From: an uncultured Gammaproteobacteria bacterium | GTDB taxonomy: Bacteria > Patescibacteriota > Microgenomatia > Levybacterales > UBA12049 | Assembly (NCBI GenBank): GCA_964416505.1 | Contig: CAYQEJ010000002.1 | Location: 968-64,967 of the forward strand | Reading direction: 5' to 3' | Length of the DNA: 64,000 nt | Shown: piece after piece, positions 4,524 through 55,886 of the stretch | How the letters are laid out: every line of letters begins with the position of its first letter | Position numbering within the stretch: the stretch's first letter is position 1 | Translations under genes and position numbers: made by a program | The notes under the pieces: model-generated | Database searches by the model: none | Told to the model about the DNA's origin: nothing | What the model saw: the letters and a program-made list of their open reading frames with translations, nothing else

Positions 4524-5072
4524 ATGAAAAAAATCCTAACAATTTCACTAGCTGTAGTTATGCTTTTAATAGGCACTGGGAAATCTTATGCTTATGAAGC
4601 ATCAGCCTCGTCTGCAAAGCTACAACCTACAATAGTGAGTAAACCATACGACAATAGAGCAGAAGTACTCAGGGGGTTCTTAGAATCTTACGATTCACCT
4701 CTTGCTCCTTATGCCGGAGAATTTGTCTATTATGCAGATAAATACAATCTTGATTGGAGATTAGTTGCATCAATTGCAGGCCTTGAATCAACTTTTGGTA
4801 AAAGAATTCCTTACAACTCATATAACGGATGGGGATGGGGTATTTACGGAGATAATATGATCAGATTTAATTCTTGGTCTGAAGGAATCGAAACAATTTC
4901 AAAGGGAATTCGTGATAGATACCTTAAAGAAGGACAATATTCAGATCCATATGTAATTGGCCCAACTTATGCTGCTTCTCCTACATGGGCAGTTAGAGTA
5001 ACATTTTTCATGAATAAAATGGAGCAGTATAGAATAAAAAACGGTAAATCTACCCTTGCCCTTGCTCTATAA
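4524..5072 (+). CDS. secreted peptidoglycan-hydrolase-like protein, paralog 2 (tandem duplicate of 3810-4382)
   Basis: Signal peptide. FLESYDSPLAPYAGEFVYYADKYNLDWRLVASIAGLESTFGK...NGWGWGIYGD is collinear with paralog 1. Confidence 0.45.
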   Translation: MKKILTISLAVVMLLIGTGKSYAYEASASSAKLQPTIVSKPYDNRAEVLRGFLESYDSPLAPYAGEFVYYADKYNLDWRLVASIAGLESTFGKRIPYNSYNGWGWGIYGDNMIRFNSWSEGIETISKGIRDRYLKEGQYSDPYVIGPTYAASPTWAVRVTFFMNKMEQYRIKNGKSTLALAL

Positions 5073-36312: not shown

Positions 36313-38025
36313 CTATTCCTGCGCAACGCGCAAAACTTCTTCTACCGTAGTGACTCCTTTTAGCACTTTAATATATCCATCCTGCTTCATAGTAATCATT
36401 CCTTCAGCGACAGCTTCTTTTTCCAAAGAAATACTATCTGACCTTTTTAAAATCATTTCCGCAATTTTTGTAGTTATGGGCAATACCTCAAAAATTCCAA
36501 CTCTTCCTTTATATCCTGAATTATCACATTCGACGCAACCTTTAGTCCTAAAGAACTTTGCTTCACCAGGAGGGAAAAGTGGTCCAAGCTCTTTTTTCAT
36601 AGTCTCTAAAAGCTGTGGTGGGGGAGGATATCCTGTTTTGCATGTCTGACAAAGCCTTCTAACAATTCTTTGTCCAACAATTGCATTCATAGAAGAAGAT
36701 AAGAGAAATGTTTCTGCTCCTAAATCCAAAAGTCTTGGTAACGCACCAGAAGCGTTGGAAGTATGTAGAGTAGAGAAGACCAAATGTCCTGTTAGCGCAG
36801 CTTGTATTGCCAGATCTGTGGTTTCTTTATCACGAATTTCTCCTACAAGTATAATATTTGGATCCTGTCTCAAAAATGCTCTAAGACCCGTAGCAAAAGA
36901 AAGCCCCACTCCGCTATTAACCTGAACCTGATTTATTCCTGGCATTTCATACTCAACGGGATCTTCCAAGGTCATAATATTTACCTTAGGACTATTCAGC
37001 TTGTTCAAGACTGAATAGAGCGTAGTTGTTTTTCCAGATCCCGTAGGTCCACAGACAAGTATTATTCCATGGGGTCTTAGCATATTTGTCTCTAAATTCC
37101 TAAGAGAAGTTCCTACAAGCCCAAGCTCTTCCAGAGTTGGTATACCTCCGCTTTTTCGTAAAAGTCTCATTACAATTTTTTCTCCATGAGCAGCAGGAAG
37201 GACTGAAATACGAAGATCAACTTCTTTATCATCCACTTTAAAATTAAATCTTCCATCCTGAGGTGTTCTATGCTCATCAATTTTCATTTCTGAAAGAATT
37301 TTAATTCTTGAAACTACTGCTTCTTGTACAGTTTTTGGAAGACTAAGTCTGTCATACAAAATTCCGTCAATTCTGTATCTGACTCTTACTCTTTCTTCCT
37401 GAGGCTCTATGTGAACATCTGAAGCTCTACTTTTTACAGCATATTCGAGAATAGTTGATACAATCTTGGCAATCGGAGCTTCTTTAATTATTTGAGCAAT
37501 CTGAGTAGAATCTACTGTCTTTGTTTTTGGAGCCTCTTCTGTCTCTTTAAGCGCTTCTCCAACTTGACCCACCAAAGCTTGCTTGTACTGCATATCAATT
37601 GCTTGCTTAACAGCAGTTGGCGCAGCAGCGAATGCTTTGATATTAAGTCCGGTTTTTTGTCTTACAAATGAAATCGCATCAAGATCCACTGGATTTCCCA
37701 TAGCAATCGAAAGCGTTTTTGTCCTATCGTCATAAGCGAAGGGAATAAGATTAAATCTTTGAACTACCGCTTCAGGCACAAGACCAAGTGCTTGGGGAGA
37801 AAAGGAAGTAGCATCAATCGAAATATATGGAATTCCTAAAAGCTTAGCTTTTACTTCTGAAAGCTTGTCTTCACTCACATATCTTAGAGTGTTAAGAGCA
37901 TCTTCTTCTGAAATTCCCTGAGTTACAACGCGAAGTTTTATGTCATTATATTGAACAGGCGACAGAAGTCTCTGTGCATAAAGCGCGTCGGAAATAGCTG
38001 TTTGAGTAACAGGATTTATGGGCAT
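36313..38025 (-). CDS. pilB: type IV pilus assembly ATPase PilB (GspE family)
   Basis: N-terminal GSPII domain, Walker A GPTGSGKTTTL, tetracysteine motif. Start set at MPINPV... because the upstream ATG would overlap the divergent holB start. Confidence 0.85.
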   Translation of the reverse strand: MPINPVTQTAISDALYAQRLLSPVQYNDIKLRVVTQGISEEDALNTLRYVSEDKLSEVKAKLLGIPYISIDATSFSPQALGLVPEAVVQRFNLIPFAYDDRTKTLSIAMGNPVDLDAISFVRQKTGLNIKAFAAAPTAVKQAIDMQYKQALVGQVGEALKETEEAPKTKTVDSTQIAQIIKEAPIAKIVSTILEYAVKSRASDVHIEPQEERVRVRYRIDGILYDRLSLPKTVQEAVVSRIKILSEMKIDEHRTPQDGRFNFKVDDKEVDLRISVLPAAHGEKIVMRLLRKSGGIPTLEELGLVGTSLRNLETNMLRPHGIILVCGPTGSGKTTTLYSVLNKLNSPKVNIMTLEDPVEYEMPGINQVQVNSGVGLSFATGLRAFLRQDPNIILVGEIRDKETTDLAIQAALTGHLVFSTLHTSNASGALPRLLDLGAETFLLSSSMNAIVGQRIVRRLCQTCKTGYPPPPQLLETMKKELGPLFPPGEAKFFRTKGCVECDNSGYKGRVGIFEVLPITTKIAEMILKRSDSISLEKEAVAEGMITMKQDGYIKVLKGVTTVEEVLRVAQE

Positions 38026-38068
38026 TACTATAATAGTATGTAAAAGTGTGGTATAAATCAAGAAAAAC

Positions 38069-38710
38069 ATGAATACATTTATCATTTCTTCAAAAAATTT
38101 AGAAAAGGGAATAGGGGAGAGTGAAAAATTAATTAAGGGATATAAAATTGACGCTTTTGATATTCAAAAATTAGAATTTGAAAAAGCGCTGGGAATTGAA
38201 GACGTAAGGAAAATTCAGGAAAAAATTTATCTAAAACCTTTCAAAAGTGAAAAAAAAGCAGTAGTCATTATTATGAAAAATGGCGCTACAGTAGATGCTC
38301 AAAATTCCATGTTAAAACTTCTAGAAGAACCCCCAACCACAACGCTTATTTATTTGATTACGGATAATTTCCAATCTTTTCTTCCTACTATTTTATCTCG
38401 CGCAAAAATTATAGAACTTAGAGAAGAATTAGAAGCAAATATAGAAAATCTGGAAAAAATTTTGACATTAGATAAGACAGGAGACAGGCTTTATCTCGCA
38501 CAAGAAGTTTCTAAGGAAAAAGGGGATGCCATCAAATGGCTTGAAGGAGCTATACTAGCGGGTCGTGAAGAAATGTTAAAAACTTCAGATAAAGAAGAGG
38601 CCTTAAAATTCAGGAAGTTAATACACAAACTCGAACTAACTCATTATGATTTAAAAACCACCAACGCCAATCCTCGCCTCGCATTAGAAAACCTATTTCT
38701 AAACCTATAG
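38069..38710 (+). CDS. holB: DNA polymerase III delta-prime-like subunit (small AAA+ lid-type)
   Basis: LKLLEEPP and ILSRA motifs. 213 aa. C-terminal 15 codons (ANPRLALENLFLNL*) are the source of the downstream repeats. Confidence 0.6.
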   Translation: MNTFIISSKNLEKGIGESEKLIKGYKIDAFDIQKLEFEKALGIEDVRKIQEKIYLKPFKSEKKAVVIIMKNGATVDAQNSMLKLLEEPPTTTLIYLITDNFQSFLPTILSRAKIIELREELEANIENLEKILTLDKTGDRLYLAQEVSKEKGDAIKWLEGAILAGREEMLKTSDKEEALKFRKLIHKLELTHYDLKTTNANPRLALENLFLNL

Positions 38711-38721
38711 AAATTTACGCA

Positions 38722-38746
38722 CGCAAGGCCTGGCCTTGCGAGGCTA
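38722..38746. repeat. palindromic hairpin element H1 (CGCAAGGCC-t-GGCCTTGCG + AGGCTA)
   Basis: Perfect 9-bp inverted repeat with 1-nt spacer and no T-run. Related copies at 41312-41342 and 42246-42270. Confidence 0.6.
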
Positions 38747-38771
38747 GAGAACTCATAGTATAATCCGCGCC

Positions 38772-39323
38772 ATGAGTAAAGAAAATTTATTGCACCAAGA
38801 AGATGACTTTAGAAGTGAATTCCGAAGACATTTTCCGTCAGGAACAATAATTCCATTAGAAGCTTCACAAATTAGAGATAGAAGGGTAAGACGTTATTTT
38901 AGAATGGACGACCCAACGGAAGGTGGAGGAGATTTAAATTTTGCAGTTCGACATCCAGATGAAAGCACAACTTATGCTTTTGCAACATATGACCCTGACA
39001 CAACCGTAGTGGGCGAAATGGGTTTTATAGATATAAGTCCCCGTGGACTAGTAGCAGGTTATGGATCAATGATGTTTGGCTGGATAGGTGAAAACGCTGA
39101 GCAACTAATAGCAGAAGTAAGGTGGACAGACACCGTAAGACACATGAGAAGAAGGGGACTTGGAACCAGAAGGCTAGAACTGATGAATGCGTTCGCAAGA
39201 ACTTTTCGCGGTGTTCCTCTTCAATCCGATTGGCCAACTGAATCAGCAACTGGAGTATGGCAAAAACTTGTTAATCAGGAAAGAGCCACAACTACAGAAC
39301 ATGGAGATTTTATTTTCCGCTAG
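38772..39323 (+). CDS. GNAT-family N-acetyltransferase-like protein (cassette 1)
   Basis: Acetyl-CoA-binding motif HMRRRGLGTRRLELMNAFAR (R/Q-x-x-G-x-G/A). TATAAT 7 nt before ATG. GC about 42%. Confidence 0.45.
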   Translation: MSKENLLHQEDDFRSEFRRHFPSGTIIPLEASQIRDRRVRRYFRMDDPTEGGGDLNFAVRHPDESTTYAFATYDPDTTVVGEMGFIDISPRGLVAGYGSMMFGWIGENAEQLIAEVRWTDTVRHMRRRGLGTRRLELMNAFARTFRGVPLQSDWPTESATGVWQKLVNQERATTTEHGDFIFR

Positions 39324-39374
39324 ATATACGCCAACCCCCGCCTCGCATTAGAGAACTTATTTCTAAACCTATAG
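39324..39374 (+). repeat. holB 3'-tail copy B (encodes IYANPRLALENLFLNL* in frame after the cassette-1 stop)
   Basis: 43/47 nt identical to holB 38663-38710. Followed by TTTAGCCTCA and a TATAAT box. Confidence 0.7.
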
Positions 39375-39409
39375 TTTATTTTTAGCCTCACTTCTGATAT
39401 AATTTCGCG

Positions 39410-40036
39410 ATGCATGAACTTGGCCCACGTCCAGGAGTAGACCAGAGATCTCAACAGAGCAGAAGAGACTTTCTCAAAAACGCTGCAAGATTTTCTACTG
39501 GTATAGTTATCGCAAGTGCGCTTCCGGAAATCGAAAAACCGGCTTTTGGTGAATTGAGCAGAATAACTGCTGATGTTACAAGAAAACAAACAGGAAATTC
39601 TGGATTTAGAGATAACATTCTTGAACAGTGTAAAAATAGCCCTGATATACAACAGTGCAGTACGGATTATTTACGCTCACCTGACACTCAGCTATTAACT
39701 GTAGTTTTTGCGCCGATAAATGAAGAATTTCAATACAGAGCGGTGCCATCTTTATTGGTCAGTGCAACTGACAAAAACACAAAAAATCCCTTTAAGGATT
39801 TAGCTGTTGGAACTGGAGGCTTTAAATTTAGCAGAAGAGAACTCGTGGCGGGTGCCATAACTACATTAACTTTCGGATTTTTACATAACGTAACAAATAA
39901 GGGCTTCGACACAAATACAATTCCTGTATCTCAGCTAGCTCTAGGAGCTGTAAATTGGGTATTACAAAGAAGATTTGGAGCACTGGCTCCGATAATTAAT
40001 CATGCTCGATGGAATTATAAGTTTAACAACGAATAA
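39410..40036 (+). CDS. Tat-signal secreted hypothetical protein (cassette 2)
   Basis: Twin-arginine signal SRRDFLKNAARFSTGIVIASALP. Hydrophobic C-terminal region. Confidence 0.45.
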   Translation: MHELGPRPGVDQRSQQSRRDFLKNAARFSTGIVIASALPEIEKPAFGELSRITADVTRKQTGNSGFRDNILEQCKNSPDIQQCSTDYLRSPDTQLLTVVFAPINEEFQYRAVPSLLVSATDKNTKNPFKDLAVGTGGFKFSRRELVAGAITTLTFGFLHNVTNKGFDTNTIPVSQLALGAVNWVLQRRFGALAPIINHARWNYKFNNE

Positions 40037-40045
40037 ACTTATTCC

Positions 40046-40093
40046 TACGCCAATCCTCGCCTCGCCCTCGAAAACCTTTTCCTAAATATTTGA
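40046..40093 (+). repeat. holB 3'-tail copy C (YANPRLALENLFLNI*) fused to TTGACA-N17-TATAAT promoter
   Basis: Differs from holB mostly at synonymous positions (gca tta to gcc ctc, cta ttt cta to ctt ttc cta). Its TGA stop is the TGA of TTGACA (40090-40095). TATAAT at 40113-40118 lies 5 nt before the ATG at 40124. Confidence 0.7.
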
Positions 40094-40123
40094 CACCTAA
40101 TTATCCTGTAGTATAATTACGCT

Positions 40124-41281
40124 ATGGGAAACGAGGGGAACATAAGACCTATTAATCCTAAGGATGCAGCATTTATCTCAAGATTAAGAACTATCGCATC
40201 TCCAACTCCTGTTGTAATTGAGCCATCAATAACTCCTAAAAATCCAGATGCTCCCGATAGAGAAAGGGCAATAAAAGCAACTTTCGAAGCAGCAAATCAA
40301 GCTGTGGGCACTATGCGTCTTGCAGAAGAAATAAGAGACCATCTACTCCCAGGCTGGAGCGTTGAAACGATAGACTCTACCTCTTTAGGATATCAAACAA
40401 GCTATCGTTTTAGTGAACATTCCCCACGTCATGAAGGAGAAGAAATGAGATTTTCTTTTTTTGGAGCAATATTAAAAAATTCCATGGAAGGAAAAGTCAT
40501 CGCAGTAGGATTCGCAGGAGATCCATTCAGTGATTATATATTTGGTCCAGAAGATATCGATAGGGGATTTACTGGTTTATCTTTTGGAGTTTCCTATGCG
40601 GAAGGTAAACCAAATTCAGATACAAATACACTCGCCGAAGCAATAAATGCAATTAGAGGAATAGGGATTGAAGATGTGCGTCATGAACCAGAGCCTAGAT
40701 ATAGATATTTTGACACAACATCGAGGGTAGTCCTTGGTAAAAGATCAAGACAAAGCATAAAATCTAATGAAGAAACTCCGACTGAAGATCAAAGTGATTT
40801 TAATCCTGAAAGTGGAGCTATATTAAAAGACTATTACCCAGCAGAAGGAATGTATGTAGAAAAATTAAGACAAGTTATGGAAGATGGACTCGCAGCAGTT
40901 TTTGAACTACAACCTAATTTACCAGTCCAAGAAAGAAATCGAGAGCTTACACCACATATAATAGACGTTATTAGACAGACCATGTCTCATTATGCTAGCC
41001 TAGGAGCAATGAATGATCGACCCTATGGAGATATTGGAGGCCAATATATAGCTGCAACCGAACGGGGCTACGGAAATTATTTGTCATCCATAACTAGCCT
41101 TCAAGAAGTTGTAACAAAATGGTGGATGGAGGGAGCAGCAAGAATTAGATCTCTTAGAGAGAGCAGGCCTTTGATAATTCCATCAGGAGGAGGAAGATAC
41201 CATACGCCTCCTTCTCCTACATTCCTAGGTCAACCCATAATTCATATTGAAAGACCCTTTGATCCGGATTCTGCCGACTAA
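40124..41281 (+). CDS. hypothetical protein (385 aa, cassette 3)
   Basis: Long ORF with a leaderless-type promoter. No family recognised. Confidence 0.4.
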   Translation: MGNEGNIRPINPKDAAFISRLRTIASPTPVVIEPSITPKNPDAPDRERAIKATFEAANQAVGTMRLAEEIRDHLLPGWSVETIDSTSLGYQTSYRFSEHSPRHEGEEMRFSFFGAILKNSMEGKVIAVGFAGDPFSDYIFGPEDIDRGFTGLSFGVSYAEGKPNSDTNTLAEAINAIRGIGIEDVRHEPEPRYRYFDTTSRVVLGKRSRQSIKSNEETPTEDQSDFNPESGAILKDYYPAEGMYVEKLRQVMEDGLAAVFELQPNLPVQERNRELTPHIIDVIRQTMSHYASLGAMNDRPYGDIGGQYIAATERGYGNYLSSITSLQEVVTKWWMEGAARIRSLRESRPLIIPSGGGRYHTPPSPTFLGQPIIHIERPFDPDSAD

Positions 41282-41311
41282 TCAAAAATTGCTTAAATTC
41301 CCTTTAAATAT

Positions 41312-41342
41312 TAGCCTCGCAAGGCCAGACCTTGCGAGGCTA
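41312..41342. repeat. palindromic hairpin element H2 (TAGCCTCGCAAGG-ccaga-CCTTGCGAGGCTA)
   Basis: 12-bp perfect inverted repeat with 5-nt loop. Contains the TAGCCTC motif in both arms. Confidence 0.6.
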
Positions 41343-41385
41343 TTTGATAATTGAAATAGGGAGATGTATACTACAGGACAATAAA

Positions 41386-42165
41386 ATGTCCAGAGATATT
41401 TACGATCAATTTAGAGCTGCTCAAGAAGCATTAGCTGTAAAAGCAGCAGAAGAAGCAAGAAGATTAAATGAAGCTGCACAAAGAGCAGCTGACGTAGAGG
41501 CTGCAAAAAAAGCTGAAGTAATTAGGGCAGCCAATGAAAAACAACGCTTAAGAGATGAAAAAGTAGCCGCGCAAAGAAAAGAACTAGAACCTGTTGCCCA
41601 ACAACTTCAGGAAATTTTGGAAGCCATTAAAAATCATGATCCAAGGATTCAGGCAGCAAGAGAAAAAGATGTTGCACTAACAACTGCAATTATTGGACAA
41701 ATTGATGATCCTAGATTGTTATTTGTTCTATTCCTAAGATGGGGAAATAAATTTGGGTTATCCCCACAGGAAGTACATCAACTAGAACATCCTAAAAAAG
41801 GACTCATAGCAAAATATTTAGGAGAAGAAACTCCAGACAAAATAATCGGTGAAGATTTCCAGCAGGTAACAGTAACTCTAGGCGTTGACTGGATAAGCAC
41901 TGTGTCCGAACATGGCTTAGCTCCTAGACTAAAAACAGAAGACTTTATTGGAGACAATTCGTTAGTTTTTCCTACGCTGGCTACTGCTATCGAACATCCT
42001 ATGAGTAGATTTGAGTCTTTTGAACTTTTTAACAACAAATATTCAGATACAAAACATTATCAACGAAGAGATAGACAGGGTAGAGGATGGGATATGAGTT
42101 CTGTAGATTTATTTGGAAGAAGAGAATTTGAAAATCAACCTCAAGATCCTGGTGATTCATGGTAA
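41386..42165 (+). CDS. hypothetical coiled-coil protein (cassette 4)
   Basis: Start taken at MSRDIY. A 6-codon uORF, MYTTGQ*, precedes it. N-terminal Ala/Glu/Lys-rich coiled coil. Confidence 0.4.
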   Translation: MSRDIYDQFRAAQEALAVKAAEEARRLNEAAQRAADVEAAKKAEVIRAANEKQRLRDEKVAAQRKELEPVAQQLQEILEAIKNHDPRIQAAREKDVALTTAIIGQIDDPRLLFVLFLRWGNKFGLSPQEVHQLEHPKKGLIAKYLGEETPDKIIGEDFQQVTVTLGVDWISTVSEHGLAPRLKTEDFIGDNSLVFPTLATAIEHPMSRFESFELFNNKYSDTKHYQRRDRQGRGWDMSSVDLFGRREFENQPQDPGDSW

Positions 42166-42178
42166 AACTTTCTTTTCC

Positions 42179-42223
42179 GCCAACCCCCGCCTCACCCTCG
42201 AAAATCTATTTCCAATTATTTGA
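42179..42223 (+). repeat. holB 3'-tail copy D (ANPRLTLENLFPII*) fused to a TTGACAcc -35 element
   Basis: More diverged copy. Again ends in the TGA of TTGACA (42220-42225), followed by hairpin H3 (42246-42270, CGCAAGG-tctgg-CCTTGCG + AGGCTA). Confidence 0.65.
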
Positions 42224-42287
42224 CACCTAAATATCCTGTAGCCACGCAAGGTCTGGCCTTGCGAGGCTAAGAAAAATGTAAAAATTC

Positions 42288-42887
42288 CTAGACTCGGAAG
42301 CCTTCGCTTCTTAAAGCCACTTTGTTTAATTCTACCGTAGCTCGATCGGTTGTAAAATATGGCCGATTAACTGTAATTATCGCACTTCCTCGTGCATGAT
42401 GTTCATAACCTCGGGTTAATTCATGCCAAGTAGTAACATGAGGAACTAGAGGAGACCTGATTGGGACAAGATCGTATATAGTAGCCTGCTCATACCCAGA
42501 GGGATCCTCAAAAATTAAGGTATCAGGAGAAGTTCTTGGAAAAACCCCAAGCTGAAAACCGAGATCAAGTACTACATCTGAGGTAAAACCTCTTTCTCCT
42601 GTAATCTCGGGTATTACTTTTCTGAATGTATCGCTAAATTCTCCCTCTCCCCAAATTAGCTTAGCGCCAGAGACCAGAAGGGCTCCTGGTTTCTTAGTGG
42701 CTGCTAGTTCCCTTATTCTTCTTAAAGCTTCTTCAACTGTAACTCCTAGTTCGTATGAACCCCATCCGTCAATTGCGCCTTCATATCCGGGTCTTCCTTC
42801 CCTCATCGCTTCAAGGTCGCGTCTCCTCCAATCAATGTCGAACTCTAAAGAGCCTTGAAATCTTGGGCCACTTTCTACTTGACTCAT
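42288..42887 (-). CDS. hypothetical protein (199 aa)
   Basis: ORF with elevated GC. No motif recognised. Confidence 0.4.
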   Translation of the reverse strand: MSQVESGPRFQGSLEFDIDWRRRDLEAMREGRPGYEGAIDGWGSYELGVTVEEALRRIRELAATKKPGALLVSGAKLIWGEGEFSDTFRKVIPEITGERGFTSDVVLDLGFQLGVFPRTSPDTLIFEDPSGYEQATIYDLVPIRSPLVPHVTTWHELTRGYEHHARGSAIITVNRPYFTTDRATVELNKVALRSEGFRV

Positions 42888-42963
42888 CCTATAATTATAC
42901 CACCGAAAGCCAAATTAGCCTTTTAAATTGACACTAAAGCTGATTTTTGAAACTATCAGATTG

Positions 42964-43344
42964 GTGAATAATTGTAAGTTTTGTAAAAGTCCCACTCAGG
43001 AGAGTTTTTATTTCTGTCCTAATTGTGGAAAGAAAATAAAAGAACCTCCATTTAAGTTTTCGGTGGGGAAGTCTATTACTATTATAATAGGGGCGATTCT
43101 TCTACCTCCTTTTGGAATAATTCCGGGAATTCGATATTTCCTGAAAGATGACAGACGGGCGCAATTTGTGGGAGTAACTACAATTGTTGTTACTATAATT
43201 ATGTCAGTCTTAGCAGTTTTGTTTACGATAAATTTAGTTAATGGATTTTCAAAATCATACAACGATATTCTAAAACTCCAAGGAGGCGCACCAGCATCCA
43301 CAAATCAAAAAGATATCTTAAATCAAATCCAAGATCTTCAATAG
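42964..43344 (+). CDS. zinc-ribbon membrane protein. GTG start inferred.
   Basis: CKFCKSP...CPNCGKK zinc ribbon followed by two TM helices. The track's TTG start is the -35 TTGACA. Start low confidence. Confidence 0.4.
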   Translation: MNNCKFCKSPTQESFYFCPNCGKKIKEPPFKFSVGKSITIIIGAILLPPFGIIPGIRYFLKDDRRAQFVGVTTIVVTIIMSVLAVLFTINLVNGFSKSYNDILKLQGGAPASTNQKDILNQIQDLQ

Positions 43345-43375
43345 CTTCTTATATTCATTTGGTATAATATCAGGC

Positions 43376-43603
43376 ATGGAAAGACCTGTTTGGATCAGTA
43401 GATCAACGATTAGAAGAACCGACGCTCCCAGATGGGAACCAAAACGAGTAGAACCTATAAATGACATAATTCATAATCATGCAATTCATGAAATCAAAGA
43501 AGAAATGATGCATGAACTATGGGGGAGATATGGGAATGATAGAACTTTTGGAAGATTTGTCGATAGAATAAAAACACAAGAAGGACTTGAAGATCATAGA
43601 TAA
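43376..43603 (+). CDS. hypothetical protein (75 aa)
   Basis: TATAAT 7 nt before the ATG, a leaderless pattern. Confidence 0.4.
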   Translation: MERPVWISRSTIRRTDAPRWEPKRVEPINDIIHNHAIHEIKEEMMHELWGRYGNDRTFGRFVDRIKTQEGLEDHR

Positions 43604-43645
43604 GATCTGGAAACCATTCGTTTTTTTTGCTAAGATAGTCTATAA

Positions 43646-45652
<2,007 letters not shown>

Positions 45653-52629: not shown

Positions 52630-53565
52630 TTACTTATCATTTCCACTATGAAATGATCTATGTACCTCTCTTAGCTGCTTGTTTGTTATATGTGTGTAAA
52701 TTTGAGTAGTTGCAATATTTTTATGCCCCAACATTTCCTGAACACTTCTCAAATCTGCTCCATTCGTTAGAAGATCTGTTGCAAAACTGTGTCTTAATGT
52801 ATGAACGGTAGCATCCACCGGAATCCTAGTTTGGCGAACATATTTCTTAACAATCCTTTCCACACTTCTAGCAGTGAGTCTCATTCTTTCCCCATTATTT
52901 TCTTCACTTATTGCACCAGAGTAACGAATAAACATTGGTTTAAAAGGATCTTTTCGATGATTGAGGTATTTTTGTATCCAATCTGCAGCTCTATCTGAAA
53001 CGAACACAATTCTTGATCGTCTACCTTTTCCTATAATTCCAAACTCTTTTCTATCCAGATTAATCTGATCGCGATTAAGACTCACTAACTCAGACACGCG
53101 AAGTCCAGTAGAAAATAAAAGCTCCATTATAGCCCTATCCCTAACACCTTCTTCTTTAGATGTATCGGGTGCTGTAACGAGTCTCTCAACCTGATCTCTT
53201 TCCAAAAACTTAAGAGACCTACTTTCCGTTTTAGGTAAATCTATCTTTGAAGGCTCGAGAGTTTTCTGATCATTTTTTATAAGAAATCTTAAGAACGAGC
53301 GGAGCGCTATTATGTAATAATTCTGAGTAACCCTCTTAAGACCTGCGCCTTTTTCATCTGTCTTATTTGAAAGAAATACTCTGTATTTTCTTATATCAGA
53401 AAGCTCTATATTTTCAAGATTTTTATTTGGTATGTTATCCAAATACCACAGCTTAAATATTTCTAGGTAATGCCTGTAGTCTCTAATAGTAAGCTTGCTG
53501 CAGTTTTTTTCTATTTCTAAATATTCTAGAAAATCTTGAGTTAGCTTTGTAAGTTTTTCATCCAT
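52630..53565 (-). CDS. tyrosine site-specific recombinase (XerC/XerD-like)
   Basis: Core-binding N-domain. Catalytic R...HxxR...Y with RHSFATDLLTNGADLRSVQEMLGHKNIATTQIYTHI. A TTAGCCTC motif lies 19 nt upstream of the start. Confidence 0.8.
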   Translation of the reverse strand: MDEKLTKLTQDFLEYLEIEKNCSKLTIRDYRHYLEIFKLWYLDNIPNKNLENIELSDIRKYRVFLSNKTDEKGAGLKRVTQNYYIIALRSFLRFLIKNDQKTLEPSKIDLPKTESRSLKFLERDQVERLVTAPDTSKEEGVRDRAIMELLFSTGLRVSELVSLNRDQINLDRKEFGIIGKGRRSRIVFVSDRAADWIQKYLNHRKDPFKPMFIRYSGAISEENNGERMRLTARSVERIVKKYVRQTRIPVDATVHTLRHSFATDLLTNGADLRSVQEMLGHKNIATTQIYTHITNKQLREVHRSFHSGNDK

Positions 53566-54938: not shown

Positions 54939-55886
54939 ACCTCTCCATGCGTAGATGAGTACGATAGTATTCAAATTTTAGCTTCATTTAGCCTCAAAAT
55001 AATTTATTTCATAAAACCTATAGCGGGGGATAGCAGAAAAATTAAGCAATTGGAAAATATAGAGAGAAATCCATGCCAATAATAAAACGAAATTTAAAAA
55101 TTTAAATAAAATGGAGAAAAAAATTGGTAAGGAAAATGGGTCTTCTCCGGGAATTTAGCCTCCGTGACGTCGTAAAAGTATTATTCTACGACATAATCAA
55201 TCTATACTTCCTAGTGCCTAATTTGTCCAAATTTTGTTATAGAAAGACATCTAGAGGAACGTAGTAAATATTCCTACTCTTATTGCTTAAGTAATACCTC
55301 TTCCTTTCCTAAGTAAACGATAATATCTATAAATTAGCCTATGTTACAAAGCCCCTCCTCTGAGTTATCCACATGTGTTTTATTTAGCTTGTTAAATCAA
55401 TCTAATCGCATTATTTTAGCCTCAAAATATAACAAGAAATAACGTTCGTATTTTTTTCGATTTGAAAACAACAAGGTATTAAAACGAGGAGGAAGTACTA
55501 GCGCATGAAGTATAATCTTAGGGATAATTACCGAGATTCAGCTCCGTGTCAATTAACCATACACCACTCTCCATAAGAGATATGAGCGTGTCCACAGGCT
55601 CGTGAAAATTTACTTAAAAGCTCGTGAAATTACGACATGAGACCATTTTTTACCCATAAATATGTCCTATAATATTTAACTAAATATATCAAACTATATC
55701 ATCACTACCTGTATCAAACTATATCATTTAGCCACAACACCCTCTCCTCTTCCCTGTCTTCAGTTGACCATTTTTTTATAAACAAATTTAGCCTCAAATT
55801 ATGCGTAAATAATTAATTCCCACTTAGCCTCTAAATCAATTTAAATATAAGGGTTTGTAGCTTAAAATCTCTTCTCCACTTTCCTA

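Follow-up and report, generated by a model that had tools for sequence, protein, structure and literature searches.

A 64,000-nt stretch of contig CAYQEJ010000002.1 (assembly GCA_964416505.1; hereafter the window), from a Levybacteria member of the candidate phyla radiation (CPR), carries an array of mostly single-gene cassettes directly behind holB, the gene for DNA polymerase III delta'. The cassettes are separated by copies of the last codons of holB, which we call tails. Sequence comparison with relatives points to the interval between holB and gyrB as a real gene-exchange hotspot in one Levybacteria clade. The array is best read as homology-anchored acquisition of related DNA, that is, as iterated insertion with long target duplication, in which the spare tails would be displaced gene ends; we put the probability of this reading at about one in two. 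A first-pass annotation of the window had offered two explanations, an integron-like array or repeated acquisition with the holB tail as the crossover point, and the second fits better.

The order of the locus from left to right is as follows (window coordinates).

36313-38085, minus strand: pilB, longest open reading frame (ORF), overlapping the start of holB (38069) by 17 nt
38069-38710, plus strand: holB (213 aa; PF13177, E = 2e-21), left core-gene border
38664-38710, plus strand: tail A, the functional holB end (..ANPRLALENLFLNL*), located by repeat search and degenerate pattern
38714-38748, plus strand: hairpin 1, directly after tail A (-16.3 kcal/mol, z -3.2)
38772-39323, plus strand: F19 (183 aa), leaderless, with its -10 at 38759-38764
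39328-39374, plus strand: spare tail B, 91% identical to A, four of four differences synonymous
39383-40036, plus strand: F6 cassette, consisting of the TAGCCTCA motif and GATATAAT (39396-39403), then a 208-aa protein
40047-40093, plus strand: spare tail C, 79% identical to A, its stop TGA lying within TTGACA, the -35 of the F13 promoter
40090-40117, plus strand: F13 promoter (12/12 match)
40124-41281, plus strand: F13 (385 aa), with a single homologue, in L001
41312-41342, plus strand: hairpin 2, a perfect 13-bp stem between F13 and F8 (-24.5 kcal/mol, z -7.3)
41386-42165, plus strand: F8 (259 aa, coiled-coil N-terminus), with its -35 TTGATA at 41344
42177-42223, plus strand: spare tail D, 68% identical to A, part of the repeat at 42165-42241
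42220-42241: truncated copy of the F13 promoter after tail D (TTGACACCTAAATATCCTGTAG)
42239-42270, plus strand: hairpin 3 (-20.7 kcal/mol, z -4.95), sharing TAG with the truncated promoter
42269-42288, plus strand: left-hand copy of the zinc-ribbon 5' end, now decayed (..TGTAAAAATTCC), matching the L093 junction at 15 of 18 nt
42288-42887, minus strand: u199 (199 aa), inserted at the zinc-ribbon 5' end, 89.8% nucleotide identity to L093
42928-43344, plus strand: second, type II promoter and the functional zinc-ribbon membrane protein gene (ORF 42964-43344)
43376-43603, plus strand: conserved 75-aa gene, right core border
43655-45652, plus strand: gyrB, right core border

The four tails lie in register and form a 47-nt repeat family in the repeat search of the window. 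A degenerate 34-nt pattern matches exactly these four sites and nothing in 100 shuffles (0 expected), and a profile hidden Markov model (HMM) trained on 22 tails picks out none besides them in the 64 kb. The threefold downstream recurrence of the last 15 holB codons, as noted in the first-pass annotation, is thus confirmed (45-47 nt, 0 expected by chance). Tail D and the truncated F13 promoter behind it (42165-42241) form a 77-nt direct repeat of 40035-40111 at 82% identity (repeat family D2), and D encodes two residues absent from all functional tails (L12P, N13I). In L001, a tail-C-type end with its promoter forms the functional holB stop.

Some finer points of the first-pass annotation stand in part. 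Tails do follow the stops of unrelated genes except at the 385-aa F13, which is followed by a hairpin and not by a tail; narrowing the search space to 1.7 kb brings out no decayed tail between F13 and hairpin 2 with the tail HMM. The in-frame placement of B and C relative to the preceding stop is as described, but with no consistent frame across loci it must be put down to chance. Of the two tails said to end in the TTGACA of a -35 element, only C has one that is part of a working promoter (12/12 match); D is followed by a truncated copy of the same promoter.

Two Logan contigs from run SRR12487045 (L101 and L102) are 100% identical to window positions 37136-38745 and 38717-43647, with the first palindrome as the only break between them. 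The array is therefore no artefact of binning or scaffolding, as 37136-43647 is reproduced exactly. When strain variants of this array were sought, one further assembly was found, and it is identical. The Logan gene call places the pilB start further in, which leaves a divergent promoter region of ~43 nt before holB, and the start of the long pilB ORF is thus probably an over-extension. The type IV pilus genes pilB, pilT, pilC and pilM stand directly left of holB.

Relatives were gathered by holB searches of GTDB genomes and Joint Genome Institute (JGI) metagenomes, which returned Levybacteria/Patescibacteria loci; all comparisons are built on metagenome-assembled genomes and contigs. Orthologues of holB with 62-70% identity occur in the same context beside minus-strand pilB in L001-L010 and L013, and the shared backbone reads pilB (minus strand), holB, an optional zinc-ribbon gene, an optional 75-aa gene, gyrB, H+-PPase and gyrA. 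Fifteen spare tails were counted in 10 loci from at least eight lineages, always between holB and gyrB and in the orientation of holB. The window and L001 have three each, L005 (identical to L034) has two, one of them decayed, and L002, L003, L095, L004, L013, L093 and L094 have one each; L003 and L095 are 98% identical and hence not independent lineages. The holB tail is single-copy in L007, L008, L010, L014 and L022-L024. Among these, holB abuts gyrB in L022-L024, the zinc-ribbon gene stands alone between them in L014 and L007, and L008 has one added glyoxalase-fold gene. Units are thus present in some relatives and missing in others, and their gain, loss and re-ordering across relatives bear out the initial description of discrete, mostly single-gene units at the holB 3' end.

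The units move between genomes. F6 is flanked by tails in all seven loci that hold it, with different neighbours each time: upstream it meets holB (L003, L094, L095), F19 (window), F8 (L001) or a Trp-repressor-like gene, X111 (L005), and downstream F13, a hairpin with the zinc-ribbon gene, a hairpin with F8, a 273-aa gene or a PIN module. The window and L001 share F13, hairpin and F8 as a two-gene block that travels together, and in L001 the hairpin-F8-tail portion also occurs by itself. L001 and L094 are the one pair in which a recent gain or loss can be resolved (n = 1). Between them the F6 unit with both its tails is 93.8% identical, against 87.5% for holB (p = 0.004) and 86.5% for the zinc-ribbon region (p = 4e-5). 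For the window and L093 the values are 89.8% in u199 and 74.8% in F6 (p = 6e-9). Since identities differ between units and flanks, the units have histories apart from the backbone and from each other.

The spare tails come from foreign holB alleles. The stop is kept in register in 12 of the 13 complete spare tails, and most of the encoded peptides fall within the range of functional tails. Measured against the functional tail of the same genome, the 13 copies show 113 nucleotide differences, 71 of them synonymous where 25% would be expected (p = 2e-17), so the first-pass reading that the copies differ mainly at synonymous positions extends across the clade. Six spare tails with peptides of fully functional type each carry 3-9 synonymous changes relative to the tail of the genome they sit in (39 in total); these 39 make up nearly all of their 44 differences, against an expected fraction of 0.40 for a drifted resident copy (p = 3e-11). 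This bias identifies the spare tails as recently working ends of other holB alleles and not as duplicates of the resident tail arising at insertion, and with it the earlier claim that each had once been a selected holB C-terminus is upheld. Within a genome, tail copies are 64-91% identical.

Once spare, the tails decay. Distal copies hold more aberrant residues or indels (L005 4851-4882, L001_d, window tail D); the L005 remnant at 4851-4882 bears an indel and was recognised at E = 1e-6 in a small search space, while L006 has a candidate only (E = 0.5). In L005, L006, L002, L013 and L043, spare tails have decayed or vanished with the downstream gene still in place.

Exchanges take place inside the tail, as its 3' part with the promoter tracks the downstream gene (..CTAAATATTTGAC with F13; ..AACCTATAG plus TAGCCTCA with F6) and its 5' junction stays with the gene before it (taaaac..ttttcc behind F8 being one case). 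The functional tail of L094 consists of the left end of the L001 functional tail and the right part of the second L001 tail, a mosaic which places the left exchange between the two genomes in CCCCGCCTCGCCCT. At the opposite end of F6, similarity breaks off after GCCAACC, with 10 differences in 45 nt against 2.8 expected (p = 6e-4). Both resolved exchanges (n = 2 only) fall in CCCCGCCTCGCCCT, the 5' core of the tail. The left limit of holB homology in spare tails varies from 13 to 22 codons, the repeats measure 45-66 nt, and the longest uninterrupted identity reaches 39 nt between the tails of different genomes and never exceeds 19 nt within one genome.

The core codons AAC-CCC-CGC-CTC-GCC (N-P-R-L-A; window 38669-38683) are uniform and rich in GC at third positions (GC3) across 16 species, with CGC in 13 of 16 and CTC in 12 of 15 and a GC3 of 0.8-0.9 against a gene average of ~0.25; the Arg codon is CGC in the core and AGA elsewhere. 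This pattern suggests that the ~15-nt core may be under nucleotide-level constraint or subject to horizontal homogenisation. No conserved inverted-repeat core was seen in the tail, and inspection by eye for a dif-like site gave no conserved 11-6-11 arrangement. The sequence GCCTCGC, which the hairpin arms have in common with the tail core, was considered as a DNA-uptake sequence; seven of its eight copies in the 64 kb sit in this locus, and it is therefore no dispersed motif. In L043 (196-225), and also in L020 (1075-1100), the last four holB codons and the stop are repeated in tandem as a 15-nt micro-duplication (CTTCTTAATATTTGA CTTCTCAATATCTGA), a miniature tail duplication with no gene inserted.

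A second gene end is duplicated at the other border. Relatives differ in the promoter of the zinc-ribbon gene, of which there are two types, and in its start codon, ATG or GTG; the type II promoter of the window is also found in L001, L002 and L008, and the order of the 75-aa gene and gyrB is kept in L002, L003, L006, L008 and L014. In L093 (2116-2143), the zinc-ribbon promoter and the first 28 nt of the gene are intact and run straight into the 3' end of u199; this left copy is identical at 24 of 24 nt to window 42969-42992. In the window, the whole zinc-ribbon gene with a different promoter stands on the far side of u199 from the decayed remnant at 42269-42288. By this comparison, the first ~26 nt of the zinc-ribbon gene are duplicated around u199, a mirror image of the holB tails. 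A glyoxalase-fold gene (F16; L002, L008) has taken over the zinc-ribbon gene's original promoter and ATG at 4-8 nt of microhomology, which means that illegitimate joints also occur at the hotspot.

Homology-anchored acquisition would account for these observations in four steps. First, a fragment of DNA from a related lineage would enter the cell, plausibly by transformation, bringing holB complete with its tail, the gene or genes next in line and, in many cases, the beginning of a further tail. Second, the left exchange would fall in holB or a tail and the right one in the resident tail, the latter through short homology or, in founding events, through an illegitimate joint a few codons before the stop (homology-facilitated illegitimate recombination); the incoming tail would become the functional one, and the resident tail with everything behind it would be pushed downstream. 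Third, tail-gene-tail units already present in relatives may be inserted, swapped or deleted by tail-by-tail exchange. Fourth, spare tails that are not refreshed would decay and their units fuse. A mirror process anchored at the right border would have displaced the first ~26 nt of the zinc-ribbon gene, and the hairpins would travel with each displaced tail as the terminator-like stem of holB.

Homology-facilitated illegitimate recombination has been reviewed, with a minimal processing segment of 25-35 bp (PMC6382021), a length that the between-genome identity runs of up to 39 nt attain. The short runs within genomes would also fit a protection of surviving arrays, with only repeats too diverged for deletion persisting. 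The adjacent type IV pilus genes are compatible with competence and prove nothing. Homology-anchored acquisition is the simplest account because it covers both borders and accounts at once for tails that are of foreign alleles, vary in extent and decay, for linkage that is mosaic and for the lack of any recombinase.

Several points weigh against it. That the pathway is RecA-type homologous recombination with occasional illegitimate joints we infer, like the route of DNA entry, from units that resemble each other between genomes more than their flanks do and from the adjacent type IV pilus genes; it would have to work on homology arms of ~45 nt at 70-90% identity, and such arms are poor RecA substrates. 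These organisms are assumed to be competent. The two resolved exchanges are both sited within ~14 nt of the GC-rich core CCCCGCCTCGCC, whose abnormally conserved codons are of the kind expected at a recombinase core site. The tail holds the longest identical run of holB in only 21 of 78 species pairs. Several left boundaries of spare tails coincide at codon -14, which could reflect one ancestral junction or a preferred site, and the origin of the first tail-gene-tail unit lies outside the observed events.

The strongest competitor, which we regard as possible though doubtful, is a site-specific recombinase acting in trans on the tail as an attB/attP-type site, so that integrase-less, cis-mobilizable cassettes circulate, excise as circles and re-integrate at the functional tail; this would resemble the accretion of cis-mobilizable elements (CIME) at fda, the staphylococcal cassette chromosome (SCC) at rlmH and tycheposon islands at tRNA genes. 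Direct repeats of a target gene's last 45-66 nt on either side of each unit are the canonical footprint of an integrase (10.1101/2020.12.28.424599). All tails have one orientation, the more decayed copies are distal, and both resolved exchanges lie in the 14-nt core, which is conserved at the nucleotide level beyond what the protein needs. Yet no integrase, excisionase or other mobile-element gene was found within or adjoining ~25 loci or in 15 units, although such islands normally show occasional integrase-bearing members, and an exact degenerate-pattern scan of the 2.9 million viral contigs of IMG/VR gave 0 tail matches. A recombinase with this specificity would also leave aside the like duplication of the unrelated zinc-ribbon 5' end, the variation of the interval that takes place free of tails in L043, L010, L025 and L031, and the lack of an inverted-repeat core in the tail. 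The only recombinase in the 64-kb window, as first annotated, is a XerC/D-like gene ~10 kb away (52630-53565); its product is best matched by XerC and XerD models, falls below the XerC/D equivalog cut-offs and is called a generic Xer.

The hairpins bear on a third possibility. Three GCAAGG-N5-CCTTGC palindromes (38723, 41319, 42246; 0 expected in the window scan) have folding energies of -16 to -24.5 kcal/mol (z -3.2 to -7.3) and lack a T-run, in agreement with the first description of them. Over 37.8-43.8 kb, searches for known RNA families gave sub-threshold noise only. The hairpins adjoin or supply the -35 of the next promoter, the right arm of hairpin 1 being the -35 (TTGCGA, 38736-38741) of F19, and the hairpin-F8 arrangement is found twice in L001. 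The same element also follows the holB stop in L008, L010, L007 and L003b, with a stem of different, fully compensated sequence in L007. Beyond this locus the hairpin has no further copy, either in the window or in ~0.9 Mb of fetched loci. To judge from these comparisons, the hairpin looks like an ancestral holB terminator-like stem carried along with a displaced tail and not like a recombination site. The proposal that the hairpins are att sites at cassette boundaries fails on the same stem following the holB stop in the cassette-free relatives L008, L010 and L007.

IS200-like Y1 transposase genes (PF01797) lie on the minus strand right after holB in L018 (4345-5030) and L017 (1760-2430), flanked by inverted CAACCCCTGGGGTYG-type hairpins; in L017 such a hairpin replaces the last holB codons (..LFLSTPGVGD*), and the type is also seen after the tail, upstream of F10, in L002 and L004. 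A Y1 transposase (IS200/IS605 or associated with repetitive extragenic palindromes, REP) might thus move the units with the GC-rich palindromes as element ends, an idea that can draw on these REP-like hairpins, on the rewritten holB end of L017 and on the related hairpin before F10. We consider it improbable. The L017/L018 hairpins are of a different sequence type, the window hairpin is confined to the locus and present in relatives that have no cassettes, and units are bounded by tails and not by hairpins, B and C having none. Moreover, Y1 transposition makes no 45-nt target duplication.

Each unit has its own -35 and -10 about 7 nt from the ATG in the promoter scan. Leaderless starts are the local norm, for TATAAT stands ~7 nt before the ATG of all genes at the locus, core genes included. 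The tails could also be maintained regulatory modules, insulators or terminators with promoter-upstream sequence, and no recombination scars at all: tail ends overlap or abut promoters (TTGACA in C), and several spare tails are better conserved than the adjoining spacers. There is little to recommend this view, however, because tails are lost while the downstream gene remains (L005, L006, L002, L013, L043), tails show no structure, and their variation follows the holB frame with the stop in register in 12 of 13, which regulatory selection would not yield.

Least probable of all is an integron, or a cluster of attC sites without an integrase (CALIN), with the tails as attC sites: the units are co-oriented and mostly single-ORF, with very short non-coding spacers and cargo resembling that of chromosomal integrons, but the first-pass comparison fails on three defining features, as IntI is absent (the Xer-like protein scores 113 bits against the 265-bit cut-off of the integron integrase model TIGR02249), the junctions of tails B, C and D folded as RNA and DNA on both strands have energies like those of shuffles (z +0.75 to -1.1), and each unit has its own promoter instead of being promoterless behind a common Pc, and, in addition, the repeat is the coding end of a host gene.

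The cargo itself is obscure. Among 5.8 billion proteins the F6 family numbers 5 members; the F8 family has 4, and for F13 a single homologue was retrieved. A distant F8 homologue (34% identity) sits in an ordinary chromosomal, non-holB context free of tails, and a homologue of F19 occurs at another place in the hotspot of L010. F19, F13, F8 and u199 have no Pfam, NCBIfam, PADLOC or PDB match, and the proposed GNAT-like nature of F19 found no support in Pfam, NCBIfam and PDB sequence searches. The F6 protein does show the SRRDFLK motif of twin-arginine translocation (Tat), as annotated, and a weakly Rce1/CPBP-like C-terminus. Cassette GC is 0.38-0.44 against a window ORF mean of 0.358 (standard deviation 0.037), a slight excess; the higher GC that had been reported is marginal, with a GC3 equal to that of the backbone, and the cassettes are at home in this lineage. 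Across loci, the cargo comprises unknown proteins, a glyoxalase/bleomycin-resistance fold, small regulators and a PIN module.

Two kinds of cargo have features of their own. The Trp-repressor-like cassette gene (141 aa) has a 14-bp palindrome, ATATACATGTATAT, in its promoter and again just past its stop in three genomes; the palindromes are likely operators or ends of this unit.

L005: 3600-3637 and 4064-4095
L013: 11630-11657 and 12084-12110
L043: 265-291 and 718-745

Minus-strand two-gene modules occur in the hotspot of L094 (1791-2416; 130 aa and 76 aa) and L093 (718-2016; an 83-aa gene and a 337-aa PIN-domain protein); both are putative toxin-antitoxin-like cargo.

The motif TAGCCTC, described at first as a flank of the hairpins, has 18 copies across the window against 6.3 expected. 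It often reads tTAGCCTCAAA, and as a rule a -10 box follows 5-8 nt downstream, TAGCCTCAAATTTGATATAAT being one instance. The motif scan places it in the window at 279, 1667, 3726, 10393 (minus strand), 39383, 53585 (minus strand), 54989, 55417, 55789 and 55825; it is also found in the F5 promoters of L001, L002, L006 and L008, and the holB hairpin holds it twice in inverted orientation. It is possibly a lineage-specific promoter-proximal element. An intergenic region of ~950 bp (54939-55886) contains five TAGCCTC copies and the only perfect DnaA box of the window (55365), and could be an origin-like or non-coding RNA region. For the holB locus itself, the idea of a replication origin was rejected: GC skew tracks gene strand, and a DnaA-box cluster is absent there.

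CPR/Patescibacteria have tiny genomes with few recognisable mobile elements, and how they acquire accessory genes is poorly understood. The holB locus is a concrete, sequence-defined site at which genes confined to one clade are acquired, dropped and rearranged between species with an essential gene kept intact. If homology alone drives the process, short conserved gene ends suffice to build a modular cassette array and no recombinase is needed, which would also explain insertion with long target duplication, long described but open as to mechanism. Should the core be recognised by a recombinase, this would represent a new att specificity in an unexplored phylum. Under either reading the array is a ready marker for strain-level heterogeneity in groundwater metagenomes. 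A bolder view, which we offer tentatively and hold to be rather unlikely, is that in CPR bacteria a whole population shares a pool of single-gene, self-promoted cassettes, for which the terminal ~45 nt of an essential gene serve as a portable recombination site. Such a system would be an integron analogue without a dedicated integrase, or with an unrecognised chromosomal one acting on the CCCCGCCTCGCC core, and each arrival would regenerate the host gene automatically.

The initial statement that the architecture matches no described system is too strong, as insertion with long target duplication (PMC2853133) and islands of serial integration at gene 3' ends have been described. In the former, target duplications of long and variable length (30-400 bp) span gene stops, mobility genes are lacking and the species are mostly competent (PMC2853133); a 46-bp repeat overlapping the 3' end of HI0105 is an example, and the mechanism is unresolved (Furuta et al. 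2010, PMC2853133). As there, direct repeats of more than 30 bp flank units free of mobility genes and are single-copy at empty sites, and they often span a stop or start, so that the target gene stays intact, with a length that varies by event. Unlike there, up to three iterations occur at one target and units are re-assorted among species, the cargo consists of single ORFan genes and not of restriction-modification systems, the host is a CPR bacterium, and the repeat copies are not near-identical (64-91%). Because the copies differ at synonymous sites, at least one tail copy came with the insert.

Tandem accretion at gene 3' ends is familiar from integrative and conjugative elements of the ICESt group and CIME at fda, from SCC at rlmH and from e14 and phage 21 at icd. 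The likeness is close: the target 3' end bounds each unit, the gene is regenerated, older units are pushed outward and att copies decay. Those elements, however, are multi-kb and carry an integrase or are demonstrably served by one, whereas the units here measure 0.6-2 kb, no locus has an integrase, and a second, unrelated gene end behaves alike. Tycheposon islands accrete at tRNA genes (10.1101/2020.12.28.424599).

The minimal mobile elements and core-flanked hotspots of Neisseria, a transformable genus, consist of whole-gene cassettes between conserved genes (PMC3787668, PMC3082526). They share with the present locus the alternative cassettes and the lack of mobility genes, and exchange there is attributed to homologous recombination in the flanks; they are not described as keeping displaced gene ends, whereas here such copies divide the site into modules. 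With integrons and CALINs the array has in common co-oriented, mostly single-gene cassettes that are shuffled among relatives and carry accessory or unknown cargo, but IntI and a folding attC are both missing, a housekeeping gene's coding end provides the repeat, and the cassettes cannot derive from mRNA since they have their own promoters. What is new here is the combination of single-gene modularity, repeats of foreign alleles, displaced gene ends at both borders and a CPR host.

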